Source: Candidatus Woesearchaeota archaeon
GTDB taxonomy: Archaea; Nanobdellota; Nanobdellia; Pacearchaeales; GW2011-AR1
NCBI GenBank assembly: GCA_964467035.1
Contig: CAYXNX010000001.1
Span: 51,373-115,372 of the forward strand
DNA: 64,000 nucleotides
Direction of reading: 5' to 3'
Within the stretch, counting starts at the first letter, position 1. Each line of letters begins with the position of its first letter. A program made the position numbers and the translations under genes. Below, in pieces: positions 9,936-25,704 of the stretch. Under the pieces are notes generated by a model. That model was not told the origin of the DNA. It saw only the letters and a program-made list of their open reading frames with translations, and did not search any database.

Positions 9936-9953
9936 TTTCAAAGCGCCCCGACC
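9936..9953. repeat. attL-like 18-bp direct repeat tttcaaagcgccccgacc (copy of tRNA-Asp 3' end)
   Basis: exact match to 19792..19809. Confidence 0.7.
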
Positions 9954-9970
9954 GCACGTCATGAATTTGT

Positions 9971-11431
9971 TTAACGCTCTTTTTGTTTTAGTTTATTTAA
10001 TTTATTGAATCCCTCCAATAATTCTTTTATTTCTTTCTGAGCCTCTTCAATGATGGCTTTGCTTTCTCTATAATTAACTTCTTTCTCTTTCTCTTTCCGA
10101 TATCTATTAATTGATAAATCCCATCCTTTTTCTTTTATTTCTTCAAAAGGAACAAAGAAATGTTTTTCAAATCTGTCCTCGTTGCATTCATTGAATCTTT
10201 TTTTAAATCTCTCTAAAACATCAGGAATATCATTCTTTTCTATAGGATTTCTTTTATCATCTAAACTAAATCCATCATTTTCCATTTTGTAAAACCAAAC
10301 TTTTTCTGTAGGTTCTCCTTTTGTGAAGAATAAAACTGCAGTTGAAACTCCTGCATATGGCTTAAATACTCCCGAAGGCATAGATATAACTGCATCTAAT
10401 CGACACTCTTCTAATAACAGCTTTTTAACTGACTTATGAGCATTAGAATTACCAAATAAAACGCCTTCTGGAACAATTACAGCACATCTTCCACCAATAT
10501 TCAGAGAATTATACATAAGCTGTAAAAAAAGCAACTCTGTTTTGCTTGTGCTTATTGTTAAATCATCAGATTTCTCGCTTTGATTTATAGATCCCTTAAA
10601 TGGAGGATTTGCTAAAATTAAATCATAAATTCCTTTTTCATCATATCTTTTTGATAGAGTATCTTCTCCAATTATATTTGGATTAGTAATTCCGTGCATC
10701 ATTAAATTCATAACTGCAATTCTAACCATTGTTCTATCAATATCATAACCATAAAGGGATTCTTCATCCAATATTTTCTTTTTCTGATAAGTTAAGGTGC
10801 TAATACCATTTTTTTTATTTGTTTTTAATATGTGTTCATAAGCATTGACTAAAAATCCAGCAGTTCCACAGGCAGGATCTAAAATTCTATCACCAAATTC
10901 TGGTTTTGAGAGTTCAACCATCATCTTAATTATGTGTCTTGGAGTTCTAAATTGTCCATTCTTACCAGCAGTTGTTAATTCAGACAAAAGATATTCATAA
11001 ATATCTCCTTGTGTATCTTGGTTTTGTTCTTTTATATGTAAATCGTTGATAATATTAACTGCCTCAATTAAAAGCGAAGCAGTTGGTAATGAAAATGTAG
11101 CATCTTTCATATAATTATTATAATGTGAATTATTTCCTCCAAGGGTTCTCATAAAAAGAAATACTCTATCTCGAACATGAGGCAATATTTTGTCAGCAGG
11201 GTATTCACTCCAAACAGACCACTTACAATCTTCATTTCCCTCAAAAATAGATTTGTGTTTAATTCCCTTTAATCTTGCGTTTTGCTCTTCCCAAATGTCT
11301 CTGTCTTCAAGCTTTTTCATAAAAATTAAGTAGGATATTTGCTCAATTGCCTGAAGAGGATTACTAATTCCTCCGCTCCAAAATTTATCCCATAATTTTC
11401 TTATTTTTGATTTAAGTTCTGTGTGTAACAT
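9971..11431 (-). CDS. hsdM: type I restriction-modification system methyltransferase subunit
   Basis: N6-adenine MTase motifs DPACGTAGFL and NPPF. Confidence 0.9.
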   Translation of the reverse strand: MLHTELKSKIRKLWDKFWSGGISNPLQAIEQISYLIFMKKLEDRDIWEEQNARLKGIKHKSIFEGNEDCKWSVWSEYPADKILPHVRDRVFLFMRTLGGNNSHYNNYMKDATFSLPTASLLIEAVNIINDLHIKEQNQDTQGDIYEYLLSELTTAGKNGQFRTPRHIIKMMVELSKPEFGDRILDPACGTAGFLVNAYEHILKTNKKNGISTLTYQKKKILDEESLYGYDIDRTMVRIAVMNLMMHGITNPNIIGEDTLSKRYDEKGIYDLILANPPFKGSINQSEKSDDLTISTSKTELLFLQLMYNSLNIGGRCAVIVPEGVLFGNSNAHKSVKKLLLEECRLDAVISMPSGVFKPYAGVSTAVLFFTKGEPTEKVWFYKMENDGFSLDDKRNPIEKNDIPDVLERFKKRFNECNEDRFEKHFFVPFEEIKEKGWDLSINRYRKEKEKEVNYRESKAIIEEAQKEIKELLEGFNKLNKLKQKER

Positions 11432-11433: not shown

Positions 11434-12591
11434 TTATTGTGTTTCCTCTTTGTTTAAATCAGAGAGTGGAACCTTAAATACCTTTATAATACTTTTACAT
11501 TCATCTATGAGTTGTTGATAATTTTTTACTTGGATATTATGTAAATATTGGTTAAAAAGTTCAATAAAATCTTGCGGTTCTTTTCCGACTATTACCAAAC
11601 CAAACTGAATTCTATTACCTTCTTTTTTAGATTCCATGTAATGTATTAATTGAGAGATTGCTCTCCCAACTTGTGCTCCTATTGCATCTCTTTTTCTTTG
11701 TTTTACAATTGTTTTTGAAGAAGGAAGTTTCAACTCTATAAATATGTCCTTTCCTCTTTGAGATTTAAAACGGGAAACCCAAAGATCAATGTACCCTTTC
11801 TTATCTTTTCCAAATTTAACTTCAACCTCTTTTTCTAAATTAAATTGGCTAATATTTTGATATTTAAAATCAATAATCCAAATATTATTTTTAAGTTCAT
11901 CTCTTAATTCATCTTCAGAAATCTTCGGATTATTAACTTTTTCTTCAAATTCTTTTAATTTTTCTTCATAATAGGGAATATTCGTATGCAATTGGTTATG
12001 ATAATAATTCATAAACCCTGTAAATATTCTTGATGCTGTTTGTGGATCATTTTGTGGCAAATTCTCCATTATATCGTCAGGAGAAATATATTTTTTATTT
12101 TCTTTTTTAGTGTGTTTTAAATCTATCCAATCATTTATTATGTCTTCTTCTTCAGATGTGAGATCCTTAACAAGAAATAATCTTATTCGTTTATATTTAT
12201 CTGAAAAAGTTTGGATAAATTTCCTAAATCTTAATATATTAACTATTAAAATTTTTTTCCCATTTGAGAGAGTTTTATATTTAAAATTCCTGCTTATAGT
12301 TCGTGATACAATTAAATAATCAATTTCTTCTGAAACTAAATCAAATAAAGGAGTATGTGGGCCAATAATACTTGGGCCTGCTTTATTGGGCGTAAAATCG
12401 CATAAGACACTTCCAAAAGTTGTTTTACTTGTCCAATAAGGCTTAACAAAAATATTTAATTCATTTGCTATCATTCTGATAGTGGATTTAAGATATTTCT
12501 CACATCTTTGTTTAATATATTTGAGTGCAGTGGTATTGGAATACATCTTTTCAAGATCTCCTTTACGTATCCTTTGAAAATAATAACCCAT
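11434..12591 (-). CDS. uncharacterised protein with C-terminal PD-(D/E)xK nuclease-like motif (Shedu/DUF4263-like?) between hsdM and hsdS
   Basis: GYIDLWVSRFKSQRGKDIFIELKLPSSK then QVGRAISQLIHYM; position typical of defence insertions. Confidence 0.3.
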   Translation of the reverse strand: MGYYFQRIRKGDLEKMYSNTTALKYIKQRCEKYLKSTIRMIANELNIFVKPYWTSKTTFGSVLCDFTPNKAGPSIIGPHTPLFDLVSEEIDYLIVSRTISRNFKYKTLSNGKKILIVNILRFRKFIQTFSDKYKRIRLFLVKDLTSEEEDIINDWIDLKHTKKENKKYISPDDIMENLPQNDPQTASRIFTGFMNYYHNQLHTNIPYYEEKLKEFEEKVNNPKISEDELRDELKNNIWIIDFKYQNISQFNLEKEVEVKFGKDKKGYIDLWVSRFKSQRGKDIFIELKLPSSKTIVKQRKRDAIGAQVGRAISQLIHYMESKKEGNRIQFGLVIVGKEPQDFIELFNQYLHNIQVKNYQQLIDECKSIIKVFKVPLSDLNKEETQ

Positions 12592-12592: not shown

Positions 12593-13717
12593 TTACAATT
12601 CCCCCCTAAATGCTTTACTAATAAGAGAATTAAATAATTCTTCAGAATTTTGTTTAGTTTTGTTTATTTGTTCTTTCATTTTTTCAACTTGTTTAACAAT
12701 AAAGGCAAATTTTTGTTGGAGAGGAAGGGGGGCATCTATAAAATTAATTCTGTAAACATCATTCCTGTTTAAGCCAGGTATTGCCGTAGAACTATTTAGT
12801 TTTAAGTTATAAAATTTTAATAAATAATACAAATATGCAAGGTCCATTTTCTTTAAGGGTTTTACATAATAAGTTGTATCAATAGCCCAAAAATTTTCTT
12901 TAGAATAATTAACCTCTCCTATTGACCCCTTTCTTCCTATGATTATTCCAGGACCTTCAATTAAAAATTTTGAATGTTTTCCCACAATTCCGTTAGACCC
13001 ATAAACAGGATATTTTCCCCCATCTCTTTGTTTTTCAGATAAACCTTTTCCATATGTTAATTCAAATAATTCTTTTCCTGTTTTTTCTTCAAACTCCTTA
13101 TTATAAAACATTTCATAAAAAACACTTTTCAAATATTCATCAAGTAATTCCTCTGCTTTTTCGCTTTTGTTAGTTAATTCCTCTGCTTTTTCTAAAAGTT
13201 TGACAATTCTTTCTTGTTCTTGCAAGTCTGGTTTGCCGTTGGAGAAAGGAATAGGTATTTTTATTGATTCAAATCTCCCTTTAGTTATGTGTTTCATAGT
13301 TGAGCCATGACTTTCTTTTAAGAAAAGATGAATAGTTTTTTTAACAAAATAATAAAGATATTTTTTATAAATAGATTCTTTTTTTGGAACAACCTTAAAG
13401 ATATGCTGATTTAACCAACCCTCTTCTTTATCCCATAAAAACGCATCTAATGTTGCAGACCATGAAATTAACAAGTCGCCTTTCTTAACAAGATATTTTT
13501 TATCAAAAGTTTTAGTTGTATAATTTGGATTAGTGATTGATCCAGTTAAATCCTGAATTCTAATTATTAATTTTCCTTTTGATTCCCATTCAAAAGGTTT
13601 GAATGCCCTACCATTTACAAATTGAGCTACATCTTTAAGTTCCAGTTCTTTCCATTCAGTTTTATTTTTTTGTATTTGTTGTTTCATTTTCTTTTTTCTT
13701 TTTCTGTTGAAATTCAT
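12593..13717 (-). CDS. hsdS: type I restriction-modification specificity subunit
   Basis: LKDVAQFVNGRAFKP target-recognition domain opening; coiled-coil spacer; two TRD halves. Confidence 0.8.
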   Translation of the reverse strand: MNFNRKRKKKMKQQIQKNKTEWKELELKDVAQFVNGRAFKPFEWESKGKLIIRIQDLTGSITNPNYTTKTFDKKYLVKKGDLLISWSATLDAFLWDKEEGWLNQHIFKVVPKKESIYKKYLYYFVKKTIHLFLKESHGSTMKHITKGRFESIKIPIPFSNGKPDLQEQERIVKLLEKAEELTNKSEKAEELLDEYLKSVFYEMFYNKEFEEKTGKELFELTYGKGLSEKQRDGGKYPVYGSNGIVGKHSKFLIEGPGIIIGRKGSIGEVNYSKENFWAIDTTYYVKPLKKMDLAYLYYLLKFYNLKLNSSTAIPGLNRNDVYRINFIDAPLPLQQKFAFIVKQVEKMKEQINKTKQNSEELFNSLISKAFRGEL

Positions 13718-14852
13718 AATTTCTTGTAGTTATATTTTCTATTATTTTAACAAGTTCAATGATTAACCTTTTCGCTCTTTCTTTGTCTATGTCGGTTTTT
13801 ACAATACTTCTTAATGCAGGAAGTTTTTCTGCAGTTGTGTAAGTGGGCTTAGGTTTTTCTTTTCCAGTTAAATCTACCAAATAAACAGGAACAACTACTT
13901 CAGAAATTATTTTGTGCCAATTAGAATGAATATAATTATTTCTTATAAATTCTCTTAATTGGTGTAAATACTTTTTTTCCTCTCCAGAAATATATTTCTC
14001 TACACAACAATCATTAATTAAATCAGACAATTCTCCTTCATAATGATTTCTTTTTTTATAATACCATATTTCTTTTAAAAAAGATTCAATAAAAATAGAT
14101 AACATACAAACAGAGGCATTAAAATTTCCAAACCAATAATTACTTATAGTTTCATAGTATAATGATTTATTTTCTGGTTCAAGATGAATTTTAGTTTCTA
14201 ATAGAGGTAATTCTCTAATTCTCTCTAAAATTTCTTCTTTTTTATTAAGAAAAGATTTGTAAATTTCCTCAGCCTCCTCCTTTTTTAAAAAATATTCTTC
14301 ATTCTTTATTTTTCTTTTGTTGAAATGTTCAGACCTATCCATTAGTTCATTTAATTCGTTAATTGCTTCGTCTATATGTTTTATAGCATCCGAATCTTCT
14401 TCATATCCTTCCTTTAACATTTTTTCTTTTTTGTACAAAAATCTATCTCTTTGAAAAATAAGATTTGTGTATGAAACAAATTTAGAAGGGTTTTCTACTG
14501 CATCTAAATTAAAATTATTTTCTAAATCTTGGAAATACTTAGCAAATTTGTAAATATTATTATTCTCATCTTTAAACGATTGAAATAATCTTGAATTGCC
14601 TCTATGTTCCGAAAACTCCTTACGGCTAATAATTTTTTTGTCATATAAAAAATCCAATAATGTTTGAATATCGCATTCATTTTTTATTTCTCTTGCGAGA
14701 TAATGATAGAGATTACTTTTATTATTAACAAAAAGTTTATCAAAACTCCCTTTTATTTCTTTTTTTAAATCTTCAAACTCTTTTTTAAGTTTTTCAAATT
14801 GAAATGTTATTTTTTCTGGTTCTGAAAATTTATCTTTATTCTTCTTGTCCAT
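13662..14852 (-). CDS. uncharacterised 396-aa protein with HEPN-like Rx4H motif (Abi-like) between hsdS and hsdR
   Basis: C-terminal FIRNNYIHSNWH; helical Lys/Glu-rich N-terminus. Confidence 0.3.
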   Translation of the reverse strand: MDKKNKDKFSEPEKITFQFEKLKKEFEDLKKEIKGSFDKLFVNNKSNLYHYLAREIKNECDIQTLLDFLYDKKIISRKEFSEHRGNSRLFQSFKDENNNIYKFAKYFQDLENNFNLDAVENPSKFVSYTNLIFQRDRFLYKKEKMLKEGYEEDSDAIKHIDEAINELNELMDRSEHFNKRKIKNEEYFLKKEEAEEIYKSFLNKKEEILERIRELPLLETKIHLEPENKSLYYETISNYWFGNFNASVCMLSIFIESFLKEIWYYKKRNHYEGELSDLINDCCVEKYISGEEKKYLHQLREFIRNNYIHSNWHKIISEVVVPVYLVDLTGKEKPKPTYTTAEKLPALRSIVKTDIDKERAKRLIIELVKIIENITTRNYEFQQKKKKENETTNTKK

Positions 14853-14853
14853 T

Positions 14854-15081
14854 TTAATTCTCTTTTCCTAAATTCAATATTTTAAATAAAATTCCGTATA
14901 TTCCTGAAATTTCTGCTATAAAAAAACACAGGATAAGCAAAGGATGTAACCAGCCATAGCCAGAAAGGGTTGGTATACCTTCTAAAGACTCTCTCAAAAT
15001 TTGAGTAAAAGAAAATGATAGATTTATTATTAATGCTAATATGCTACTTATTAAAATTTCAATTTGCGTTTTTTGTTCCAT
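14854..15081 (-). CDS. small two-TM membrane protein
   Basis: 75 aa, two hydrophobic helices; overlaps neighbours by 1-4 nt. Confidence 0.4.
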   Translation of the reverse strand: MEQKTQIEILISSILALIINLSFSFTQILRESLEGIPTLSGYGWLHPLLILCFFIAEISGIYGILFKILNLGKEN

Positions 15082-15716
15082 TATTGTGGTCTCCCATGAA
15101 TTTTTTCTTTAACTACTTCATCAAAAAATTTATCCACTCCAAAAGTTGATATCTTTTTATTTGTAATGAATGCTTTTGTTGAATCTTTAGAAATATAATC
15201 TACTAATGATTTTCCTGTATTATGAGTACAATGCAACAAAGCAATAAAATCTTTCTTTGGAGATTTTTCAAATTCGCAGTAATAAGCCATTTCTTTATTA
15301 TTCAACTTTATCCCGTGTCTATTTCCATGACCAATTAAATATATTACCCTTGCTTTAGGATTATTAATTATTTTTTTAAGATTTGCTCTATCAGTATTAA
15401 AATATATCTTATATGCCCAATTTTTCTTCCTAAAAAATTTAACTAATTTTTTCAAATTTTGTCTATAAATTAGTAATTTTTCAGGCATGTAATCATTACA
15501 TAAGATTATTGCAATATGATTTTTATTAGAATTTAATTCAAAATTTTTATGTAAATAATACCATTGTGGTAAGATGAATATAGAAAATGCAGGAACAAAT
15601 AAATAATTAATAATAAAAGTTCCAATTTTAAGATAAAGCCATGCAATCCCCATGTAAATAAAAAAGGCTAAAACAATTAAATGCAAATTAGTCAAAATCC
15701 AAGATAGCAAACTCAT
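15081..15716 (-). CDS. membrane-anchored minimal caspase-like (clan CD, His/Cys dyad) protein
   Basis: two N-terminal TM helices; IAIILCNDY strand, IYLIGHGNRHG (His motif), ALLHCTHNTG (DxCHSG-like Cys motif). Confidence 0.3.
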   Translation of the reverse strand: MSLLSWILTNLHLIVLAFFIYMGIAWLYLKIGTFIINYLFVPAFSIFILPQWYYLHKNFELNSNKNHIAIILCNDYMPEKLLIYRQNLKKLVKFFRKKNWAYKIYFNTDRANLKKIINNPKARVIYLIGHGNRHGIKLNNKEMAYYCEFEKSPKKDFIALLHCTHNTGKSLVDYISKDSTKAFITNKKISTFGVDKFFDEVVKEKIHGRPQ

Positions 15717-15886
15717 TCTTCATCCTCCAAATCAATCTCTTTTCTTACCATTTCTCTCAGTTTCTCATTTATAGACTTCTCCTCTTTTTCACAGAGTTTT
15801 TTTAACAGAAGAAATTCACTTTTATACAATCTTGTAGAAACAATCTTCCTCTCTTCCCCGCTTAAAGGATTATCTTTTATTACCAT
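15713..15886 (-). CDS. ribbon-helix-helix (CopG/Arc-like) protein, 57 aa
   Basis: MVIKDNPLSGEERKIVSTRLYKSEFLLLKKLCEKEEKSINEKLREMVRKEIDLEDEE; ATGA overlap with caspase-like gene; not in ORF track. Confidence 0.45.
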   Translation of the reverse strand: MVIKDNPLSGEERKIVSTRLYKSEFLLLKKLCEKEEKSINEKLREMVRKEIDLEDEE

Positions 15887-15947
15887 TAAAGATGTCAGAT
15901 AATTAGAGTATTTAAATCTTTTCTAAAAACCTGTATACACCTTTTGA

Positions 15948-16304
15948 CTAGTTATATTCCAAAATTTCTTTCTTTGGCTCCTTATGTCCAAGGCTAAGAG
16001 TTAAAGGAATTGATATATTTGCTTCTTTTCCTGCTTTTTTGAAAGTAACTATCAATAACACATAAACATGGTTTGTTTTATAATTAATTGACATTTTAAT
16101 GCTTTTAATTGATTTTAAAGTGTTCTTGTCTATGCCTAAATTTTCACTTGCATCCATTATCTCAATACCACATATAAAGTTATTGCGGTTTACGTCAAGA
16201 ACAAAATCCCCAATATCTATGGATACCCTTGCCTTTTCCCCATTATTTATAAAGAATATATCATTCTCAAAATCATAATCTATTGTTTTAATCTCTCTTG
16301 CCAT
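15948..16304 (-). CDS. DUF2283-family protein (antitoxin-like partner of DUF4258)
   Basis: YDFENDIFFINNGEKARVSIDIGDFVLDVNRNNFICGIEIMDASENLG. Confidence 0.5.
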   Translation of the reverse strand: MAREIKTIDYDFENDIFFINNGEKARVSIDIGDFVLDVNRNNFICGIEIMDASENLGIDKNTLKSIKSIKMSINYKTNHVYVLLIVTFKKAGKEANISIPLTLSLGHKEPKKEILEYN

Positions 16305-16588
16305 TTTCTATCACTATTCCAAGCACTTATAACTTTTAAATCTTTTGAAACAACGATTTCAATTATCAATACTAAAGAGTATTTTCTACTCATTTTAAAC
16401 CAAAGTTTAAATCTATCTTCTGTTTTTCCTTTTTCAATCTTTTCCAATTTATTTATTTGTGATAAAAAACTTCTCACCATGCTTTCGCTTATAGGTCTTT
16501 CACCCATTTTTTTGTAAAAATGAGGGTCAAAACTTACATTGTTTTGATTAAGATTTTCAAGGAATTTTTTAACTTCTTTCATTTCCAT
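16280..16588 (-). CDS. DUF4258-family protein (toxin-like)
   Basis: FDPHFYKKMGERPISESMVRSFL resembles DUF4258 H..ER..R.I motif; overlaps DUF2283 gene. Confidence 0.45.
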   Translation of the reverse strand: MEMKEVKKFLENLNQNNVSFDPHFYKKMGERPISESMVRSFLSQINKLEKIEKGKTEDRFKLWFKMSRKYSLVLIIEIVVSKDLKVISAWNSDRKWQERLKQ

Positions 16589-19329
16589 TTTAACCCATTA
16601 CATTTTTGAACTATTTTTTCAAGCTGTTTTTTAGTGAAAGAATCCAGAGGTCTTGCATCTGCAAGAGGATGCTCAGCAAGATTTTTTAATTCAATATGCT
16701 TTGCTCTTACAAAAACTTGTTCTAATAATCTTAAAAATTTCAATTGCTGAGAATTATAATGTTCATTTTTATCCATAACAAATTTATCAAATTCCCATTT
16801 AATCATCTCTTGAGGATCTGGCAATCCCTTTATATCTAATAATTCTCTTAAAAAAGAAATAAAATCTTTAGTCTGTTGAATATTCTCAATAGTCAAAGAA
16901 GGATTTAATTCTCTAAGTTTCTTTTCTATTCGGATAATCTCTTTTGGTGTAACTCCCTCGCCATTTTTTATTTTTTGCATAAGAGGATCGCTGTTAATAA
17001 AATAACTAAAATCTTCATCTTCTTTAACCTGCATCATTTCTTTTTCAACTTTAACTACTATATCTGGAGCATCTATTTTTAACATTTTCTTTCTTTCTTT
17101 TTCATAAAAAATCATGAGAGGGGCAATATCTCTAACTAAAAAATCAACATCTTCAAAAGTAATCTCTTCCCAGAATTGTTCTTTTTGGATTCTAATCAGA
17201 TCATCTTTTTTCTGTCTTACAGCATCAAGATTCTTATCCCAAATCGCTTCTGCCCTTTCAACTACATACTCCTGAACTTTTGCTATTTTATCATTATTCT
17301 CTGTTTTGATATAATCAAACAATTTAACACATTGGGAAATAAAACTATACACTTTTGTGTTCTCAGAAGGAGAATAAATTAACAAAGGGGCTATCTCATC
17401 TTTCAATTCTTTTATATGTTCTTTTAAATCAAATTTAGATGAAATAACTTTTTTAATAATCCCTTTCTTTTCTACCACCATAGGAGATTCTATGTCTATT
17501 TTTTTAACAGTATCTTTTATTTGCTTTTCAAGTATTCTTTTCTCTTTTTCATTAAGATTTTTTTCTAGAGTATCAACTTGTTCTAAGAATATTCTTGTTT
17601 TTGCATCTAAAGTTGGGGTTTTATGATTTAAATCTTGTAATTTGTGAACAAGTATATTTGAGTAGTCTCCAAATTTAAAATCAAGAATTAAAAAATTGTC
17701 TTTTATGTGTTGACCTTCATTATTTGTCGGAAGCCATTCTTTGTTTTCACATGCTGAGAAATTTCTGGTTCCTCTACCCAACATCTGCCAAAATCGTATA
17801 GAAGACATAACAGGTTTCACGAAAACTAAATTCATTACTTCAGGAATATCCACTCCTGTATCTAAAACACCGACAGATAAAGCAATTCTTGGACTATCTC
17901 TTTTTCCAAATCTTTTAACTTCGTCCATATAGCGTGCCCTGTCTGAAGTAATTACTTTAATTTCTTTTGCTAATGTAGGATAAAGTTTCTGGAAAAGAGC
18001 TTCTATAGATTCAGCGTGTTTAATGCTCGCACAAAAGAAAATGCTTTTACAAGGTCTTTTATCATCTGATTTATAACACCTTTCCATAAACTCTCTAATT
18101 ATTAACTCATTTGTCCTTTTATCTGTAAATAATCTTTCAAATTTAGAACCTGGAGTTTGGAAGCGTTCAGGATCTTCTTCCTGGACTTTTAACTTTTGTT
18201 GCAATTCCTTACTTAATGTTTTACCCTCTATTCCTAAAGAAAGGATTTTTGTTTCAATAATCTCTGAAACATATGGTGCTAAAACGCCATCTCTCACTGC
18301 AGAAAGATAATCATACTTATATGTTGGTTTTTTATTTTCACAACCAAATAATTCATAAGTGTTCCTCGAATCTTCAAAAGAAGGCGTGGCAGTAAGACCA
18401 ATTTTTATAGCATCAAAATACTTAAAGATATCATTATTTTTATCATAATAAGATCTATGTGCTTCATCAAAGATTATTAAGTCAAATGCTCCAGGACCAA
18501 ATTTCTCATAAAATTTTCCTCTTGGTTTTTGAGGAGACATCAGTGTTTGAACTGTAGAAACATAAAATCTTGCACTATCTGAGAAACCCTCTATGTTTAA
18601 CTCACAAACTGGAGTTTCAGGAAAGAATTTTTTAAAGCCTTTTTCTTTTGCTTGATTAGATAAAGAAATTCTATCAACTACAAATAAAACTTTTTGAACA
18701 TTTTCTGTTTTTACTAAACAATCAATTAAAGCCATAGCAACCCTTGTTTTTCCTGTTCCAGTAGCCATATTAATAAGAGCCCTTTTATGGCCTTGAAAAA
18801 TATGCTCTAAAATTACCTTAACAGCTTCAACCGCCCTTTTCCTGTCAAGGATATCTGATCTAATCTTAGAATTAACAGGATTTTTTCTTTTTTTCATCAA
18901 ACTAACAATTCTATGCAAATCTTTTTGTGAAAAAGGTAATGTGATTTTTCTTCTCCTGTCTAAATCATCTACATAATACCAACTTGTTCCATTTGTGAGA
19001 AAAATAGGGATTTTTATTTTGATTTGCTTTTCAATATCATTTCTATAAGTTCTTGCTTGGATTTCTCCTTTTTCAACGCTAACAGATGTTTTTTTTGCTT
19101 CAATAATTGCCAAAGGTGTTCTATCCTCATCTAATAATAAATAATCTATAAATCTATCAATTCCTTTTTCTATCCCTAATCCAATACCAAAATATTCCTT
19201 AGTTTGAAAATTAGATTTAACAGGATTTATTTCTTCTTTTACATAATGTCCTTTAACTTTCCATCCTGCTCTTTCTAAAATAGGATCAATTAATTTTTTT
19301 CTTGTTTCTTTCTCAGATATTTTATCCAT
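16579..19329 (-). CDS. hsdR: type I restriction enzyme R subunit
   Basis: N-terminal nuclease domain, helicase motifs NMATGTGKT and DEAH, 916 aa. Confidence 0.9.
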   Translation of the reverse strand: MDKISEKETRKKLIDPILERAGWKVKGHYVKEEINPVKSNFQTKEYFGIGLGIEKGIDRFIDYLLLDEDRTPLAIIEAKKTSVSVEKGEIQARTYRNDIEKQIKIKIPIFLTNGTSWYYVDDLDRRRKITLPFSQKDLHRIVSLMKKRKNPVNSKIRSDILDRKRAVEAVKVILEHIFQGHKRALINMATGTGKTRVAMALIDCLVKTENVQKVLFVVDRISLSNQAKEKGFKKFFPETPVCELNIEGFSDSARFYVSTVQTLMSPQKPRGKFYEKFGPGAFDLIIFDEAHRSYYDKNNDIFKYFDAIKIGLTATPSFEDSRNTYELFGCENKKPTYKYDYLSAVRDGVLAPYVSEIIETKILSLGIEGKTLSKELQQKLKVQEEDPERFQTPGSKFERLFTDKRTNELIIREFMERCYKSDDKRPCKSIFFCASIKHAESIEALFQKLYPTLAKEIKVITSDRARYMDEVKRFGKRDSPRIALSVGVLDTGVDIPEVMNLVFVKPVMSSIRFWQMLGRGTRNFSACENKEWLPTNNEGQHIKDNFLILDFKFGDYSNILVHKLQDLNHKTPTLDAKTRIFLEQVDTLEKNLNEKEKRILEKQIKDTVKKIDIESPMVVEKKGIIKKVISSKFDLKEHIKELKDEIAPLLIYSPSENTKVYSFISQCVKLFDYIKTENNDKIAKVQEYVVERAEAIWDKNLDAVRQKKDDLIRIQKEQFWEEITFEDVDFLVRDIAPLMIFYEKERKKMLKIDAPDIVVKVEKEMMQVKEDEDFSYFINSDPLMQKIKNGEGVTPKEIIRIEKKLRELNPSLTIENIQQTKDFISFLRELLDIKGLPDPQEMIKWEFDKFVMDKNEHYNSQQLKFLRLLEQVFVRAKHIELKNLAEHPLADARPLDSFTKKQLEKIVQKCNGLKWK

Positions 19330-19370: not shown

Positions 19371-19736
19371 TTATTTTACCCTAAATGCAGACTCAAGAAT
19401 CATTTTCCCAGAATCAGATATAATATATAGCTTTCCTTTTTTAGATTTTGGATTCAAACACTTTTTTGTTTCAGCAGACCATTCTTTTTGTTCAATCTCT
19501 GCAACAACTCTTCTTAAATCTTCTTTTGTTGCTTTTTCAAAGGGCTTATTTAGAATTAAAGCAAAAGTTCGAATATCTAACATATATCTTCCAATTTTAG
19601 CGACGCCAATTCCTTCACTTAAAAGATAATCTCTGAATTTAATACACGATTGTTTATTCTTAGCAGAAATTTTGTTATTTGACTTAATAAGCTCAACATT
19701 TCTTTCAAGCTGTCTTTTGTAGTTATGTATATCCAT
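19371..19736 (-). pseudogene. tyrosine recombinase/integrase N-terminal (SAM-like core-binding) domain only; catalytic domain missing
   Basis: 121 aa with A-T--i--fr-yl-----s--ti--yl-d-r-F pattern; ORF stops 41 nt before hsdR start. Confidence 0.5.
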
Positions 19737-19791: not shown

Positions 19792-19809
19792 TTTCAAAGC
19801 GCCCCGACC
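19792..19809. repeat. attR-like 18-bp direct repeat overlapping tRNA-Asp 3' end
   Basis: exact match to 9936..9953. Confidence 0.7.
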
Positions 19810-19871
19810 GGGAATCGAACCCGGGACTCAACCGCGACAGGGTTGTATTATAACCACTTAACTACCAGGGC
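19800..19871 (-). tRNA. tRNA-Asp (anticodon GUC)
   Basis: hand-folded cloverleaf: acceptor GCCCUGG/UCGGGGC, D stem GUUA/UAAU, anticodon stem CAACC/GGUUG, loop CUGUCGC, T arm CCGGG-UUCGAUU-CCCGG. Confidence 0.85.
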
Positions 19872-19961: not shown

Positions 19962-20213
19962 TTATTTTTCTTCGTCTTCTGAATCGTCTTCTGATTCATC
20001 TTCTGAATCGTCTTCTGATTCATCTTCCGAACTGTCGTCTTCCGAATCATCTGAATTATCATCAGAGTCATCGTCTTCTTCTGAATTTTCTGATTCGTCT
20101 TCACTTACTTCGACAGCTTCACTTTCTTCTGCTTCACTTTCTGGAGTTTCATTTAAATCTGCATTTTCAGATTCTCCAGATGTTTGTTCTTGGTTTATTT
20201 GTTCGTCTTCCAT
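19962..20213 (-). CDS. highly acidic (Asp/Glu/Ser-rich) low-complexity protein
   Basis: ORF of 83 aa, DSEDES-type repeats. Confidence 0.3.
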   Translation of the reverse strand: MEDEQINQEQTSGESENADLNETPESEAEESEAVEVSEDESENSEEDDDSDDNSDDSEDDSSEDESEDDSEDESEDDSEDEEK

Positions 20214-20291
20214 GTTTGTTAAATATTTTTTTGATTTTTAAATTTATCTTAATCCTAATGAGTGACATCATTTTAGGATTTTTGGGAAGTT

Positions 20292-20299
20292 TTAAATAT
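20292..20299 (+). promoter_or_regulatory. TATA-like box upstream of tRNA-Ile
   Basis: tttaaata about 25 nt upstream of tRNA 5' end. Confidence 0.3.
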
Positions 20300-20321
20300 T
20301 GTTTATTTTTATTTAAATCAA

Positions 20322-20443
20322 GAGCCCATAGCTCAGTCAGGTTAGAGCGCTGGTCTTATATGGCTACAATTCATTAGGATTGTTGTTCTCTAAGGATGAC
20401 CTAAGAGAGCCAGAGGTCCCCGGTTCGAATCCGGGTGGGCTCA
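20322..20443 (+). tRNA. tRNA-Ile (anticodon UAU) with 47-nt intron at canonical 37/38 position (intron 20361..20407)
   Basis: exons fold as acceptor GAGCCCA/UGGGCUC, D stem GCUC/GAGC, anticodon stem CUGGU/GCCAG, loop CUUAUAA, T arm CCCGG-UUCGAAU-CCGGG; intron ends pair with the exon anticodon-loop region. Confidence 0.7.
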
Positions 20444-20583
20444 GAATTAAGGGGAACTTCGCGAATCAAAGATTCGCGGCGTGAGGTCCCCGGTTCGAAT
20501 CCGGGTGGGCTCAGAATTAAGGGGAACTTCGCGAATCAAAGATTCGCGGCGTGAGGTCCCCGGTTCGAATCCGGGTGGGCTCA
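20414..20583 (+). repeat. 3 tandem copies (period 70 nt) of tRNA-Ile 3' portion (variable loop+T arm+acceptor 3' strand) separated by identical 40-nt hairpin spacer
   Basis: aggtccccggttcgaatccgggtgggctca x3; spacer contains cgcgaatc-aaa-gattcgcg hairpin. Confidence 0.8.
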
Positions 20584-20590
20584 GAAAAAA

Positions 20591-20983
20591 ATGATAAAAT
20601 TATTCGCAATTACTTTTTTTGGAACATTCATCGTAACTAGAATTATTACAACATTATTCCATGATTTTAATTGCACTAAACTAAAAAAAGACAAATCAAA
20701 AACACTTACAGGAATTATTAGAAAAAAATCAGGCCGAGATATTCCCCATATACATTTTGGATTTTTAATTTTAATCTTAACTTTAATTATTTATTTATTA
20801 AGCAAATTTGAAATAATTTTATTTGCTATTGGCTCAAGTCTTATATTAGATCAATTAATTCCTTGGATAAGTTTAAAATTTAATTTTATTCAAAAAATAG
20901 ACTATTTTAAAATTAAAGGAATTTTGTCCACCATAATCTTGCACATTTTATTTTTTATTTTAATTTTATATTTTTCTAAATAA
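20591..20983 (+). CDS. polytopic small membrane protein
   Basis: 130 aa, 3-4 TM. Confidence 0.4.
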   Translation: MIKLFAITFFGTFIVTRIITTLFHDFNCTKLKKDKSKTLTGIIRKKSGRDIPHIHFGFLILILTLIIYLLSKFEIILFAIGSSLILDQLIPWISLKFNFIQKIDYFKIKGILSTIILHILFFILILYFSK

Positions 20984-21023
20984 CTTTCCAAACATTTAAA
21001 TAGAATGTTTATTTTATTCTTTT

Positions 21024-21293
21024 ATGCCAAAGAAAAAGGTTGCAAAAAAGAGTGTGAAGAAAAGTTCTAATAAATCTAACAAAAAAATTGCAAGTAAAAA
21101 GACAAATAAAAAAACAGCCAAATCTTTTAATAAAAAACAGACAGATTCTCAATCAATCTTAGGAGCTTTCATAGCAACTTTTTTCAGTTTAATTGGAGCA
21201 GTAATTTCTTTATTAATCTGGCACAAAAACGAATATGTTGTTTTTTACGCTAAACAATCTTTAATTTTATTTCTCATTGCCTCATTGCATTAG
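21024..21293 (+). CDS. Lys-rich N-terminus plus TM protein; apparent frameshift, reading continues in another frame to 21397
   Basis: frame shifted by 2 nt after 21290 reads ALVLSIFSGLVLWIPIIGWGIGVVLQIFVIILWVLT*. Confidence 0.35.
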   Translation: MPKKKVAKKSVKKSSNKSNKKIASKKTNKKTAKSFNKKQTDSQSILGAFIATFFSLIGAVISLLIWHKNEYVVFYAKQSLILFLIASLH

Positions 21294-21647
21294 TTTTATC
21301 AATATTTTCCGGATTAGTATTATGGATACCAATCATTGGATGGGGAATCGGCGTAGTTTTACAAATTTTTGTAATCATCCTTTGGGTTTTAACATAGATT
21401 TATTCTTTATCTGGAGAAAAAAGAAAAATTCCTTTTATTAGAGTCTTTATGAGATAATTTTTTAAAAATATTAAAGTTAAAATAGTTGTAGGATTAATCA
21501 AAAACCTGAAAAATTTAAAAAATTCTCAAACAATTAAAACTCCCAAAATTTAAAAAGATAGTTAGATTTAAAAACTATTTTGCGATTTATTTTTTAGATG
21601 CTTTGGATAATTCCTCCAGGAATTTTCTAAAAGAAATCAAAGTCTTT

Positions 21648-21720
21648 GCCCCTGTGGTGTAGCGGTCAAGCATAGAGCCCTTTCGAGGCTCTGACCCGGG
21701 TTCGAGTCCCGGCGGGGGCA
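21648..21720 (+). tRNA. tRNA-Glu (anticodon UUC)
   Basis: acceptor GCCCCUG/CGGGGGC, anticodon stem GAGCC/GGCUC loop CUUUCGA, T arm CCGGG-UUCGAGU-CCCGG. Confidence 0.85.
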
Positions 21721-22143
21721 TTTAAAGATAAGGATTGAACAAAGTGAAATCCTTCTTTCTCCGAGAACTTCTGAGAACTCTGCTTGACAATTTCAATGAA
21801 AGGGAAGTTAAATGTTAAGAAACCATAGGGGTCATACAAGTTCGAGTCCGAGCAATTTTGCGAGTGGAGGAAAACAAGGGGTGAATCAAGGCGAGCAGGG
21901 TTGCGAGAAGGCGGGGGCATTTAAAGATAAGGATTGAACAAAGTGAAATCCTTCTTTCTCCGAGAACTTCTGAGAACTCTGCTTGACAATTTCAATGAAA
22001 GGGAAGTTAAATGTTAAGAAACCATAGGGGTCATACAAGTTCGAGTCCGAGCAATTTTGCGAGTGGAGGAAAACAAGGGGTGAATCAAGGCGAGCAGGGT
22101 TGCGAGAAGGCGGGGGCATTTAAAGATAAGGATTGAACAAAGT
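21721..22143 (+). repeat. 2.1 tandem copies of a 199-bp unit immediately after tRNA-Glu; each unit ends with the tRNA 3'-terminal 10 nt ggcgggggca
   Basis: 21721..21919 and 21920..22118 identical; third partial copy to 22143; contains degenerate T-loop-like gttcgagtcc. Confidence 0.8.
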
Positions 22144-22298
22144 CTGTGCGACCAACGGACATATGTCCCTAGGCTATACACAAAAAACACACCCAAAACT
22201 TTATAAAACAACTTCTCAATTAAATTAAGTAATAAATAGAAAAAACAGATTTTATTATTAATTTGTTAGAGAAATATTAACTATTTCTCACTAAAAAA

Positions 22299-23543
22299 AT
22301 GAACAAGTTTGAACAAATACTAGGAAGAGACAATCCTATCTTAAAATCAATAAAAGATAAGGAATTTGAAATCCCTACAGAAATACAAGAAAAAACAATT
22401 CCTCCAATTTTAGAAGGAAAAGATGTTATAGCTAGTTCTGCAACTGGTTCGGGAAAAACCTTCGCCTTTTCTGTTGGACTAATTAAAAACATTGAAAAAA
22501 ACAAAGGATTGCAAGGTATTGTCCTAACTCCTACAAGAGAATTAGCAGAACAAGTTAAAAAAGAACTATCAAACTTTTCAAAAATAAAAGAATTAAGCGT
22601 TGTAGAAATCTATGGAGGAGTTTCAATAGAACCCCAAATAAAAAGACTAAAAACAGCAGAAATAGTAATTGGAACACCTGGCAGAATTTTAGACCATTTA
22701 CAAAAAAACACACTCAATCTATCAAAAATAAATACTCTTGTTTTAGATGAAGCTGACAGGATGTTAAATATGGGTTTTATAGAAGATGTGAACAAAATCA
22801 TTTCAAAAATACCTAAACAAAAACAAACCCTTTTATTCTCTGCAACACTACCTCCCAGAATAATCAACTTATCAAAAAAATATATGAAAAACCCAATAGA
22901 ACTCTCCGCCCAAACAAATGTAGACCCAAAAAAATTAGAACAGGTTTTTTACGACATATCCCCTGACTTAAAATTCTCTCTTTTAGTCCACTTATTAAAA
23001 CAAGAAAAATCAAAACTTGTAATGATTTTCTGCAATACAAGAAACAATGTAGATTTTTTAGCAAACAATCTAAAACCCTTAGGATTTAACTCTACACCCA
23101 TTCACGGAGGATTTTCCCAAGATAAAAGAACAAAAACCCTAAACAAATTCCACTCCCAAGACACAAATATTTTAATTGCAACAGATGTAGCAGCAAGAGG
23201 ATTGGATATAAAAGAAGTAACCCACATCTACAACTATGACATACCAGCTAATGCTGAAGAATACACTCACAGAATTGGCAGAACAGCTCGTGCAGGAAAA
23301 GAAGGAAAAGTTATAAACATAGTTTCAAAACGAGACTACGACAATTTTAGAAATGTTGAGCCCTTAGAATTTGGAATTAAAGAATTAAAACCCCCTTATA
23401 TTGAAAAAGTTAGTCTAAAATGGATGCCAAAAAAAGATTTTAAAAAAGGATTTTCAAGAAGAAACAACCAAAACAATTCAAAACCCCAAAGAAATAGAAA
23501 TTCTAGAAAAAAATTCCAAAAAAATACAAGACGAAAATATTAA
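22299..23543 (+). CDS. DEAD-box ATP-dependent RNA helicase
   Basis: motifs ASSATGSGKTFAF, PTRELA, DEAD, SAT, HRIGRTARAG; basic C-tail. Confidence 0.9.
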   Translation: MNKFEQILGRDNPILKSIKDKEFEIPTEIQEKTIPPILEGKDVIASSATGSGKTFAFSVGLIKNIEKNKGLQGIVLTPTRELAEQVKKELSNFSKIKELSVVEIYGGVSIEPQIKRLKTAEIVIGTPGRILDHLQKNTLNLSKINTLVLDEADRMLNMGFIEDVNKIISKIPKQKQTLLFSATLPPRIINLSKKYMKNPIELSAQTNVDPKKLEQVFYDISPDLKFSLLVHLLKQEKSKLVMIFCNTRNNVDFLANNLKPLGFNSTPIHGGFSQDKRTKTLNKFHSQDTNILIATDVAARGLDIKEVTHIYNYDIPANAEEYTHRIGRTARAGKEGKVINIVSKRDYDNFRNVEPLEFGIKELKPPYIEKVSLKWMPKKDFKKGFSRRNNQNNSKPQRNRNSRKKFQKNTRRKY

Positions 23544-23567
23544 AAATATCAGATTCTCTAATTAAAT

Positions 23568-24749: not shown

Positions 24750-24783
24750 TCAATCTTAAAAACCCTTAAAATATACTAATTTA

Positions 24784-25131
24784 ATGATAGATTTCGCCTG
24801 CAAAACTTTTAACATAGAAGATGTAATAAAATGTGAACTAAACTTAACAAAAGCAGATTTCAAAATTTTTCTCCATTTTGTTAAAAATAACGAAAAAGAA
24901 TTTGATTCCCAGACACTTGCAAGACAAACAAACTTACAAACAACAACAGCTCAAAAAGCTGTAAAAAAATTACATGAAAAAAATATTATAACTCGTTATC
25001 AAAAAAATTTGCCAAAAGGAGGATATAACTTCACCTATAAATCCCAACAAAAATACAAAATAAGAAAAATTCTTAAACAAATAATTAATGAGTGGACAGA
25101 AAGAGTTTACCAAGAAATCGAAAAATGGTAA
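24784..25131 (+). CDS. winged-helix DNA-binding transcription regulator
   Basis: 115 aa, HTH-like central segment. Confidence 0.35.
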   Translation: MIDFACKTFNIEDVIKCELNLTKADFKIFLHFVKNNEKEFDSQTLARQTNLQTTTAQKAVKKLHEKNIITRYQKNLPKGGYNFTYKSQQKYKIRKILKQIINEWTERVYQEIEKW

Positions 25132-25682: not shown

Positions 25683-25704
25683 ATCAAAAAAGATTAATTA
25701 AATT

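Follow-up and report, generated by a model that had tools for sequence, protein, structure and literature searches.

Separable mini-caspase and HEPN-like cargo genes of a tRNA-Asp-integrated type I restriction-modification island in a DPANN archaeon

A restriction-modification island with embedded cargo

The window (the whole 64,000-nucleotide stretch of DNA analyzed here) comes from an uncultured DPANN archaeon and carries a type I restriction-modification (R-M) cluster. The cluster forms an island of ~9.9 kb that is integrated at a tRNA-Asp gene and bounded by 19-nt repeats of the 3' end of that gene. One att repeat (positions 19792-19810; 19-mer TTTCAAAGCGCCCCGACCG) overlaps the 3' end of tRNA-Asp (19799-19871, minus strand), and the second, identical copy (9936-9954) stops 17 nt short of the hsdM end at 9971 and marks the far end of the island. 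The R-M operon itself is encoded on the minus strand. Its first gene is hsdR (16579-19329, minus; 916 aa), whose product is 52-78% identical to HsdR proteins with ResIII/EcoEI_R_C domains in related loci (designated by L numbers below). Two overlapping small genes follow (15948-16588, minus), a toxin-antitoxin-like pair encoding a DUF4258-like protein of 102 aa and a DUF2283 protein of 118 aa; the Pfam E-value is 8.9e-8 for DUF2283 in the 118-aa ORF and only 0.12 for DUF4258 in the 102-aa ORF, and both genes are kept in locus L016. The operon continues with an RHH-like gene (15713-15886, minus; 57 aa), a probable transcription regulator of the cassette, which overlaps by 4 nt with the gene of a 211-aa membrane-anchored “mini-caspase” (15081-15716, minus). 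The latter shares 1 nt with the gene of a 75-aa two-TM protein (14854-15081, minus), and a 1-nt gap separates this from a 396-aa gene (13662-14852, minus). The specificity subunit gene hsdS (12593-13717, minus) is identified by Methylase_S (E 2.4e-41) and PADLOC Specificity_I (E 1.9e-55). Between hsdS and hsdM a second cargo slot holds a 385-aa Shedu-like gene of the SduA_C / PD-(D/E)XK type (11434-12591, minus), with matches to SduA_C (E 1.3e-7, 32.3 bits at a cut-off of 27) and PADLOC SduA (E 5e-4). The last gene, hsdM (9971-11431, minus; 486 aa), encodes a protein that shares 68-80% identity with the HsdM proteins of related loci, which carry HsdM_N/N6_Mtase domains.

An initial annotation of this DNA had described the RHH, 211-aa, 75-aa and 396-aa genes as four tightly packed genes running in the same direction between hsdS and hsdR. 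All four are found on the minus strand at the coordinates given for them, and none is a chance ORF. The 211-aa protein has 21 homologues (45-100% identity) and the 396-aa protein 29 (34-100%), the 75-aa protein recurs beside mini-caspase homologues in two other loci (93% and 69% identity), the RHH protein is conserved in seven other loci, and a 149-kb NCBI contig has all four exact sequences annotated as genes. The sequence motifs quoted for the 211-aa protein (IAIILCNDY at residues 68-76, IYLIGHGNRHG at 125-135, ALLHCTHNTG at 159-168) and for the 396-aa protein (FIRNNYIH at 302-309) are all present. The position of the block between hsdS and hsdR was also read correctly, but its gene list was incomplete, as hsdR and the RHH gene are separated by the 102-aa and 118-aa ORFs. 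Because these two genes and the Shedu-like nuclease gene are also present, the cargo of the operon exceeds the four genes originally listed.

The mini-caspase, its small TM partner and the RHH gene

The 211-aa protein had been proposed to combine two TM helices with a caspase/CHAT-like His/Cys dyad, and both parts of this proposal find support. Hydropathy places TM segments at about residues 5-27 and 31-50, and the AlphaFold model (pLDDT 88.6) has the alpha/beta caspase-hemoglobinase fold of clan CD. A Foldseek search with this model, the check that had been suggested for a caspase-like fold, returned SAVED-CHAT and caspase-7 as top matches (E 1.8e-4 to 7e-4, probability 1.00); GPI transamidase and legumain-type ligases are also among the structural matches. 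In the predicted structure a strand at residues 122-128 leads into H130-G131 and a strand at 157-161 into H162-C163, i.e. His-Gly would end one core strand and Cys the next, as in clan CD. H130, G131, H162 and C163, among them the His and Cys of the proposed dyad, are invariant in 46 diverse relatives. A weak hhalign alignment with caspase-3 (E 0.088) puts H130 on caspase-3 His121 and the strand after H130 on the strand preceding the caspase QAC motif. Neither Pfam nor NCBIfam has a match for the 211-aa protein; zero Pfam matches, including Peptidase_C14, CHAT and Peptidase_C13, were obtained with 46 family members, no PDB sequence was matched by the family profile, and the family has no match in PADLOC. 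A profile search nevertheless gathers 359 clusters into it. The 211-aa protein is a putative caspase-like protease with a membrane anchor, and its family is described in no library searched. By the positive-inside rule, charge counts assign the catalytic domain to the cytoplasm in 112 of 129 relatives, and that of the window protein probably lies there as well.

Among known systems, SAVED-CHAT (PDB 8tl0), the TPR-CHAT protein Csx29 of Craspase (7zoq) and the caspase-like effector of type IV Thoeris have, like the mini-caspase, a His-Gly pair behind one strand and the Cys behind the following strand, and CHAT/caspase-like (clan CD) proteases of prokaryotic immunity have the defence-gene setting in common with it. 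In contrast to these proteases, the mini-caspase shows no sequence similarity to Pfam CHAT or Peptidase_C14 even by family profile, has a catalytic domain of only about 150 residues behind an N-terminal TM-hairpin anchor, and is found in DPANN type I R-M operons with no SAVED, TPR, TIR, gRAMP or gasdermin partner nearby; among the operon genes and the scanned neighbours in related loci, the signature partners gasdermin, SAVED/cyclase, gRAMP and TIR gave no match. DdvA (PDB 8rot; PMC6061681) is a membrane-spanning anti-sigma factor that contains a CHAT module and controls a CRISPR-Cas operon. This protein of about 1000 aa crosses the membrane once, keeps its zinc anti-sigma domain inside the cell and its TPR and CHAT parts outside, and has an ECF sigma factor as partner, whereas the mini-caspase has 211 aa, lacks an anti-sigma domain, has a catalytic domain predicted to be cytoplasmic and is accompanied by an RHH gene.

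For the 75-aa protein, which is conserved, two hydrophobic segments (5-29 and 43-69 by hydropathy) agree with its description as a two-TM protein. It is a partner of the mini-caspase in this clade, and its gene is replaced jointly with the 211-aa gene in L016.

The reading of the 57-aa protein as an RHH regulator is plausible. Its match to Pfam RHH_1 (E 0.0094, 16.3 bits) lies below the cut-off of 20.5, and a profile of seven RHH homologues has no significant match in the PDB. Upstream of its gene lies a TATA-like box (TTTAAATA, 15909-15916, minus) that ends 22 nt before the RHH ATG, and just upstream of this box a 20-bp imperfect palindrome (AAAAGGTGTATACAGGTTTT, 15926-15945) is a candidate RHH operator. 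The palindrome is perfect in L016 (AAAAGGTGTATACACCTTTT), a related version occupies the equivalent position in L006, and the other RHH loci have different palindromes at the equivalent place, the palindrome sequence varying with the RHH sequence. In all eight loci examined, a TATA-like box is located 28-32 nt upstream of the RHH start and is abutted by a palindrome, which lends the RHH reading indirect support. Judged from this arrangement, palindrome and TATA-like box are a candidate archaeal promoter of the RHH gene's own, which would produce a leaderless transcript.

RHH homologues precede the mini-caspase in seven loci (window, L001, L005, L006, L007, L008, L010), with a small TM gene between the two in some of them. 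The RHH proteins of L007, L008 and L010 carry a C-terminal extension of roughly 70 aa that the 57-aa window protein lacks. The unit resembles a type II toxin-antitoxin operon in that a small RHH gene comes first, with a 4-nt overlap and a promoter palindrome, and in L016 the RHH gene pairs with a gene for a NYN/PIN-like protein. It differs from one in its second gene, which encodes a membrane-anchored caspase-fold protein and no known toxin type, and in that pairing is not obligatory either way. An obligate RHH antitoxin-toxin pair is rejected by our data: five loci (L003, L014, L015, L028 and L029, the mini-caspase of L029 being 78% identical to the window protein) have a mini-caspase but no RHH gene, and a 73%-identical RHH gene precedes another gene in L016.

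The HEPN-like 396-aa protein

The initial annotation had suggested an HEPN-like protein on the basis of an Rx4H motif. The helical HEPN fold is supported, in a C-terminal domain at about residues 225-380, and the motif is conserved, with R304, Y307 and H309 of R304-N-N-Y-I-H309 at least 90% conserved among the 29 homologues. The match of the 396-aa protein to Pfam DUF4145 (14.2 bits, E 0.047) is below the cut-off of 23.1; sub-threshold DUF4145 matches occur in 18 of the 29 family members (best E 1.3e-4), and the protein aligns with an above-threshold DUF4145 protein through IRNxYIH, the counterpart there being IRNKYIH. The model is of moderate confidence overall (pLDDT 61.6), and its N-terminal part consists of low-confidence helices. 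This N-terminal helical region of roughly 220 aa has conserved motifs of its own (AREIKNEC, DENNN). In the data seen, the family is confined to DPANN archaea, Methanosarcinales and Methanococcoides.

DUF4145 is an HEPN family that occurs in R-M operons (PMC3710099) and supplies the defence protein RAZR with its RNase domain (PMC13017515). The 396-aa protein has the C-terminal HEPN fold and the R-N-x-x-x-H motif in common with DUF4145 HEPN proteins including RAZR / PD-T7-4 (PMC13017515), and its gene shares the R-M operon location of R-M-linked DUF4145 genes (Anantharaman et al. 2013, PMC3710099). It departs from the DUF4145 family by its score below the Pfam gathering threshold and a beta-hairpin insert after the R-x4-H motif, and from RAZR by the N-terminal helical region where RAZR has a zinc finger. 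PrrC in the EcoprrI type Ic operon is the textbook embedded back-up effector silenced by the R-M enzyme, and it likewise is an HEPN-type nuclease encoded in a type I R-M operon. The likeness rests on gene embedding; binding to the R-M complex and the anticodon target are PrrC features. Whereas PrrC, compared here together with RloC, has an N-terminal ABC-type ATPase domain, the 396-aa protein has no detectable ATPase signature, with no match to an ATPase family in Pfam, NCBIfam or PADLOC.

Separable modules and their possible roles

The four genes had been taken together as one candidate defence module of a kind not recognized as a named system. The second point stands: none of the four proteins has a match in PADLOC-DB 2.0.0, defence candidates (PDC) included, and that library does hold PDC models, because a downstream neighbour of the mini-caspase in L010 matched PDC-S39. 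The first point does not. The gene-neighbourhood comparison that had been proposed upholds the embedding in R-M operons, which recurs in relatives, but not a fixed four-gene block, since the downstream genes vary. The mini-caspase lies inside type I R-M operons at 11 of 14 informative loci (window, L001, L006, L007, L008, L009, L010, L011, L014, L015 and L029), which span two hsd gene orders and HsdR types; the remaining informative loci are toxin-antitoxin, Fic or AbiE islands. The gene downstream of it differs at almost every locus, and six loci have no adjoining HEPN gene: the next gene is hsdS in L008, L009, L011 and L029 and an unrelated gene in L014 and L028, while in L015 hsdR follows directly. 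Conversely, five loci have the 396-aa family without a mini-caspase. In L016 and L017, as in the window, the gene is located between hsdR and hsdS of a type I operon. In the type II R-M locus L027 it has an N6_N4 methyltransferase on one side and a HinfI-type endonuclease on the other, and it adjoins an integrase in L018 and an IS605-type TnpB in L026. A clean exchange of cassettes is seen in L016, which has hsdR, the 102-aa and 118-aa genes, the RHH gene, the 396-aa gene and hsdM in common with the window (66-80% identity). There, between the RHH and 396-aa genes, a 153-aa NYN-like gene and a 116-aa gene stand in for the 211-aa and 75-aa genes.

The explanation we prefer, and hold to have about an even chance of being right, is that two separable accessory modules occupy a cargo slot, variable in content, within a mobile type I R-M island integrated at tRNA-Asp. 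One would be the RHH-led unit with its own palindrome-plus-TATA promoter, the mini-caspase and the 75-aa two-TM partner; the other would be the 396-aa protein, whose C-terminal half forms a divergent HEPN domain of the DUF4145 type in which the R-x4-H site is intact. Genes that reside within type I R-M systems are frequently defence genes (bioRxiv 10.1101/2024.01.29.577857), and the window operon offers further defence company in the Shedu-like nuclease and the DUF2283 pair. The mini-caspase and HEPN genes are probably both back-up antiviral genes; we infer their defence role, like the triggers and substrates of both modules. The R-M enzyme would form the first line of defence, with the embedded genes travelling along as back-up effectors of the abortive-infection type. 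The HEPN protein would act, by analogy with PrrC in EcoprrI and with RAZR, an RNase of the DUF4145 type, as a latent RNase whose N-terminal helical region senses infection or the loss of restriction. The mini-caspase would be a membrane-tethered cysteine protease, activated by a signal and anchored or gated by its TM hairpin and the small TM partner, and the RHH protein would set transcription of the cassette.

Under an alternative that we consider unlikely, all four genes form one abortive-infection system in which the mini-caspase, a conserved sensor or activator, licenses by proteolysis whichever effector is encoded downstream, in this case the 396-aa HEPN protein, with the RHH and two-TM proteins as accessories. 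Defence systems commonly join a conserved component to a variable effector, and in three independent loci the gene immediately behind the mini-caspase, or behind its TM partner, is of HEPN type. It is DUF4145-like in the window and PF05168-like in L001 (E 9e-4), and in L003 it matches DUF4145 above threshold (E 1.7e-6). As these belong to different HEPN families and the L003 pairing lies outside any R-M operon, the modules may interact. An RSKGIH motif in the L006 neighbour and a RiboL-PSP-type HEPN gene in the mini-caspase operon of L015 point the same way, as does the distant family member P0136, fused to a C-terminal region with RNNLEH, although no HEPN similarity was detectable when looked for in that extension. 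Obligate coupling is hard to reconcile with the five loci that have the 396-aa family alone, the many mini-caspases followed by hsdS, hsdR or unrelated genes, and L016, where the RHH and 396-aa genes persist and the 211-aa and 75-aa genes are absent; moreover, HEPN genes are often R-M passengers on their own (PMC3710099).

The seven loci with an RHH gene directly before the mini-caspase, with or without a small TM gene between them, the 4-nt overlap in the window and the palindromes that abut each TATA-like box and change with the RHH sequence would also fit a regulatory switch. Here the tethered protease would cleave the RHH repressor, or be held by it, in response to a membrane or infection signal, which would de-repress the downstream cargo and possibly hsdS and hsdM; in a variant, the protease would control HsdR levels (restriction alleviation). 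ImmA/ImmR-type protease-repressor pairs, the CRISPR-Cas-controlling DdvA and, for the variant, ClpXP-dependent restriction alleviation offer analogies. We regard this as distinctly unlikely, given the five loci in which the mini-caspase has no RHH gene, the close RHH homologue that accompanies other genes in L016, the missing extension of the window RHH that could have faced the protease, and the extracytoplasmic CHAT domain of DdvA as opposed to the predicted cytoplasmic domain here. It is improbable that the mini-caspase is a general DPANN membrane protease or transpeptidase of the GPI8/legumain type (e.g. for surface-protein or lipoprotein maturation) that is only carried along in R-M islands. 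In its favour, DPANN genomes are compact, which makes adjacency by itself weak evidence, the family is large, and its structural matches include GPI transamidase and legumain-type ligases. Some more distant relatives (30-36% identity) have non-defence or mixed neighbourhoods, P0057 lying among ribosomal and tRNA-modification genes and P0171 beside a radical-SAM gene and an ABC transporter; across the wider family, the function may thus be that of a general membrane protease. The close subfamily behaves differently, as its distribution over R-M operons of two layouts and over toxin-antitoxin, Fic or AbiE islands demonstrates, and as R-M systems are under-represented in DPANN archaea (PMC12988326), its association with them is unlikely to be due to chance. 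The cytoplasmic placement by the positive-inside rule and the gain and loss of the gene as a cassette also speak against a passenger.

A broader proposal, to which we give rather little credence, is that a DPANN-wide family of ~200-aa membrane-tethered caspase-fold proteases, present in no library searched, acts as infection sensor or activator and proteolytically licenses interchangeable effectors, including HEPN RNases of several families. If true, archaeal R-M systems would physically contain, as their back-up, a minimal death cascade that runs from caspase to RNase.

Four genes and the folds of their products

The block lies on the minus strand of a type I restriction-modification (R-M) operon, between hsdR (16579-19329, minus) and hsdS (12593-13717, minus; Methylase_S, E 2.4e-41). 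Its four ORFs encode an RHH-like protein of 57 aa (15713-15886), a 211-aa protein (15081-15716) whose gene overlaps the RHH gene by 4 nt, a 75-aa protein (14854-15081) and a 396-aa protein (13662-14852), exactly as the initial annotation had placed them. All four are real genes with conserved homologues. On a 149-kb NCBI contig each of the exact sequences is called as a gene, the homology search returned 21 homologues for the 211-aa and 29 for the 396-aa protein, the RHH gene is conserved in seven other loci, and the 75-aa protein is a conserved neighbour in two others at 69-93% identity. The annotated homologues belong to MAGs of Pacearchaeota, Woesearchaeota and Nanoarchaeota, which bears out the earlier guess of a DPANN host. 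The sequence motifs quoted at that stage were all found in the translations, and hydropathy agrees with the two transmembrane (TM) segments that had been assigned to both the 211-aa and the 75-aa protein.

In single-protein scans the 211-aa and 75-aa proteins had no significant match in Pfam, NCBIfam, PHROGs, PADLOC or PDB sequences, and the 396-aa and RHH proteins had sub-threshold matches at most. An AlphaFold2 model of the 211-aa protein (21-sequence alignment; pLDDT 88.6, pTM 0.79) retrieved SAVED-CHAT and caspase-7 as top Foldseek matches (E 1.8e-4 to 7e-4, probability 1.00), and the caspase-like fold with a His/Cys motif that had been proposed is thus borne out by the model. Exhaustive profile searching (threshold E ≤ 1e-3) gathered a family of 359 clusters, most with members of 180-300 aa carrying N-terminal TM segments. 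Across 46 diverse members the sole invariant residues are H130, G131, H162 and C163; in the model, H130-G131 and H162-C163 end the consecutive core strands 122-128 and 157-161, as the caspase dyad does. A weak hhalign comparison with caspase-3 (E 0.088) aligned the first strand, with H130 on His121, and set the strand preceding C163 on the strand preceding QACRG. Neither the 46 members nor their profile matched a Pfam family or PDB sequence, CHAT and caspase included. One PDB match of the family profile, to poxvirus OPG086 (E 0.006), is confined to the TM segments and linker and was discarded. By a crude positive-inside count the catalytic domain would be cytoplasmic in 112 of 129 relatives. 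A homology search with profile A3 returned, among the matches listed, the same close set and one new protein; scans with profiles A1 and A2 found no relatives in viral contigs, and tblastn against plasmids matched neither the 211-aa nor the 396-aa protein. We conclude that the 211-aa protein is, on its modelled fold and dyad-type residues, a membrane-anchored mini-caspase of a family present in no library searched, and it may well be an active peptidase.

The close subfamily carries an invariant C-terminal tail, K-x3-H207-G-x-P210 (residues 203-210), which the wider family lacks; it may serve in autoinhibition or processing.

The model of the 396-aa protein is poor at the N-terminus and good at residues 226-308 and 354-378. 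Residues R304, Y307 and H309 of its IRNNYIH motif are at least 90% conserved among the 29 homologues, sub-threshold DUF4145 matches occur in 18/29 family members (best E 1.3e-4), and the family profile aligned over 104 columns, motif included, with the above-threshold DUF4145 protein of L003, one of the loci compared with the window. The Rx4H motif had been read as HEPN-like, and these data agree: judged by sequence, the protein is a divergent DUF4145-like HEPN protein, preceded by an N-terminal region of ~220 aa. DUF4145 is a recognised HEPN family whose members are fused to or located beside R-M components (PMC3710099), and the defence RNase RAZR has it as its catalytic domain (PMC13017515). 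The 526-aa neighbour of the mini-caspase in L006 and the 247-aa neighbour in L001 were compared with the 396-aa family and showed no relationship.

A distant mini-caspase relative, P0136 (427 aa), has a C-terminal extension (~240-427) that bears RLRNNLEH (R-x4-H), followed by a beta-rich stretch and a final helix, in the same order of elements as the HEPN part of the 396-aa protein. The RNNLEH motif is what speaks for a caspase-HEPN fusion (Rosetta stone); no profile or family matched the extension, and the fusion was not accepted but kept as a lead.

Neighbourhoods of the two families

The initial annotation had proposed the four genes as one system, and the neighbourhoods speak against this: partners vary, the 396-aa family occurs alone, and one locus shows a cassette swap. 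The context of the close mini-caspase subfamily was read in a small sample of 14 informative loci and is almost exclusively the type I R-M operon (11/14: window, L001, L006, L007, L008, L009, L010, L011, L014, L015 and L029). Among these 11 loci there are two different arrangements of genes and types of HsdR; in L014 and L015 the mini-caspase gene comes after hsdS and before hsdR or an ATPase gene. The remaining three are L003 (ParE-type toxin-antitoxin neighbourhood), L012 and L028 (Fic/AbiEii island). The gene downstream of the mini-caspase differs almost every time: it encodes a DUF4145-like HEPN protein in the window and L003, a PF05168-like HEPN protein in L001, the 526-aa protein, with an RSKGIH motif, in L006, a PDC-S39-like protein in L010 and an ATPase in L014, while hsdS follows directly in L008, L009, L011 and L029 and hsdR in L015.

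Five loci hold the 396-aa family without a mini-caspase. Two of these (L016, L017) are type I R-M operons; in a Methanosarcinales MAG (L027, 5380-8889) a 46%-identical homologue, with an N6_N4 methyltransferase on one side and a HinfI-type endonuclease on the other, is embedded in a type II R-M system. The family also adjoins an integrase (L018) and, in Methanococcoides alaskense (L026), an IS605-type TnpB.

The clearest case against one fixed system is L016. Its operon is otherwise syntenic with that of the window (hsdR 78%, RHH 73%, 396-aa protein 71%, hsdM 80% identity, and 77% and 66% for the small 102-aa and 118-aa proteins encoded between hsdR and the RHH gene), and between its RHH and 396-aa genes it carries genes for a 153-aa NYN-like and a 116-aa protein (L016 6012-6965) in place of the 211-aa and 75-aa genes (window 14854-15716). 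The latter two therefore act as a single exchangeable unit, and the RHH and 396-aa genes are part of the frame. Distant mini-caspase relatives (30-36% identity) have mixed contexts, namely integrase/Fic islands (P0063, P0064), a Dam-type methyltransferase (P0053) and housekeeping or metabolic neighbours (P0057, P0171). Both a fixed four-gene system and a strict RHH-toxin TA pair were rejected on the neighbourhood data.

Wherever the RHH gene accompanies the mini-caspase and the flank is readable, a small TM protein is present as well. The 75-aa type lies downstream of the mini-caspase (window, L006) and a 62-aa type upstream (L001, L008, L010), with a 63-aa protein in L011, where the RHH position is beyond the sequence; L007 has a longer TM protein, and the L005 sequence ends just past the mini-caspase. 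Homology between the downstream and upstream types was not detectable (E 0.12) and they were treated as analogous.

The R-M island, its cargo slots and the putative RHH promoter

The operon holds further cargo. The four genes of the original gene list stand; a DUF4258-like/DUF2283 pair and a Shedu-like gene are to be added to it. The pair consists of overlapping minus-strand ORFs of 102 aa (weak DUF4258) and 118 aa (DUF2283, E 8.9e-8) after hsdR and before the RHH gene (15948-16588); it is toxin-antitoxin-like and conserved in L016. The Shedu-like gene (385 aa; 11434-12591, minus), with an SduA_C nuclease domain above the Pfam cut-off (E 1.3e-7), lies between hsdS and hsdM, an interval which is a second cargo slot of the operon: in relatives it contains a 249-aa protein (L006), two TM proteins (L001) or three other genes (L016). 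The 249-aa protein looks NYN-like by eye only.

A perfect 19-nt direct repeat, TTTCAAAGCGCCCCGACCG, brackets the cluster. Copy 1 (19792-19810) overlaps the 3' end of the adjacent tRNA-Asp gene (19799-19871, minus) and copy 2 (9936-9954) stops 17 nt short of the hsdM end (9971); the type I R-M system and its passengers thus constitute a tRNA-integrated island of ~9.9 kb. Between tRNA-Asp and hsdR, a 121-aa ORF (19371-19736, minus) with a weak Phage_int_SAM_1 match (E 0.09) looks like an integrase N-terminal remnant. Just outside the island, beside the tRNA-Asp gene, an 83-aa ORF (19962-20213, minus) is made up nearly entirely of Glu, Asp and Ser. From ~20000 to 30000 of the window the GC skew is near zero and the AT skew clearly positive, differing from the rest, which probably marks a plus-strand gene block beginning just past the island.

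The RHH gene is preceded by a 20-bp palindrome, AAAAGGTGTATACAGGTTTT (15926-15945), and by a TATA-like box, TTTAAATA, that ends 22 nt ahead of the ATG. Each of the eight RHH loci examined has a palindrome and, just downstream of it, a TATA-like box 28-32 nt before the start codon. The element AAAA-NN-TGTATACA-NN-TTTT is common to L016 and L006; the palindromes of less closely related RHHs differ (GGTCCAC...GTGGACC, TAGCAACTTAAGTTGCTA and TGTAAACTTTAGTTTACA). Among random 90-nt windows about 1% reach a palindrome score ≥ 9, the best seen here, and about 3% a score ≥ 8. Palindrome and TATA-like box would fit an autoregulated RHH promoter that opens a transcription unit inside the R-M operon. The regulatory role once suggested for the RHH protein is made plausible by this arrangement at 8/8 loci; the RHH_1 match is below threshold (E 0.009) and the profile found nothing significant in the PDB.

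Longer RHHs of 128-147 aa occur in L007 (2902-3345), L010 (450-836) and L008 (258-647); they share a conserved C-terminal extension of ~70 aa (…NFSW.V.LD.G…KDSV.VP…), which the 57-aa RHH of the window lacks.

Proposed working, alternatives and meaning

We give an even chance to the reading that a mobile type I R-M island carries two separable back-up defence modules in its variable slot. The 396-aa HEPN protein would be a latent RNase, by the logic of PrrC (EcoprrI) and RAZR, and the mini-caspase a membrane-tethered cysteine protease switched on by a signal; its TM hairpin and small TM partner may anchor or gate it, and the RHH protein would set transcription of the unit. A defence role is suggested through guilt by embedding, for which Hma, BREX, DISARM and type I R-M cargo provide experimental precedent (bioRxiv 10.1101/2024.01.29.577857). 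The Shedu-like and TA-like genes of this operon strengthen the case. So does the reported scarcity of R-M systems among DPANN archaea (PMC12988326): it leaves the 11/14 R-M loci hard to explain by chance, and a housekeeping membrane protease that hitch-hikes with these operons is a very improbable account.

A cascade in which the protease acts on the HEPN protein could draw on three families of HEPN genes directly after the mini-caspase in three loci, one of them outside R-M, as well as on the possible fusion P0136, but we consider it unlikely, many loci having the mini-caspase or the HEPN gene but not both. Quite doubtful, too, is the view that protease and repressor form a switch in the manner of ImmA/ImmR or DdvA, or that the protease controls HsdR: the unit does have an RHH gene in the window, but some mini-caspase loci have none.

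Two separable modules, the reading we prefer, combine known and new elements. Both folds and the embedding principle are known already; the 396-aa protein adds a divergent new member to a known kind, DUF4145/HEPN, in the setting already described for it. The mini-caspase resembles the CHAT/caspase proteases in its modelled fold and presumably in its working, but its sequence fits no existing family model, and it lacks the signature partners of those proteases. PADLOC, PDC candidates included, does not contain it, in keeping with the initial view that no named system applies, and the literature searched on caspase-like proteases in connection with R-M, archaea, DPANN or transmembrane proteins gave no description of it. 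What is new is the membrane mini-caspase family, a compact one of 359 clusters, with caspase fold and invariant His/Cys, missed by Pfam, NCBIfam and PADLOC, together with the close association of this family with archaeal type I R-M.

In bacterial immunity, caspase-like proteases have lately come to light as effectors, as in Craspase, SAVED-CHAT, type IV Thoeris and gasdermin activation. Outside CRISPR and R-M, the immunity of archaea is poorly charted. DPANN archaea in particular are reported to have few known defence systems (PMC12988326). The 396-aa protein carries the R-M-linked DUF4145/HEPN theme into DPANN and methanogen genomes. Should the mini-caspase turn out to be a defence protease, it would represent a new clan-CD peptidase family, a further case of back-up effectors inside R-M operons and, to our knowledge, the smallest membrane-tethered caspase-type module. 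The putative RHH-controlled promoter and the two hypervariable cargo slots in a tRNA-integrated island would offer a natural map for further archaeal defence genes.
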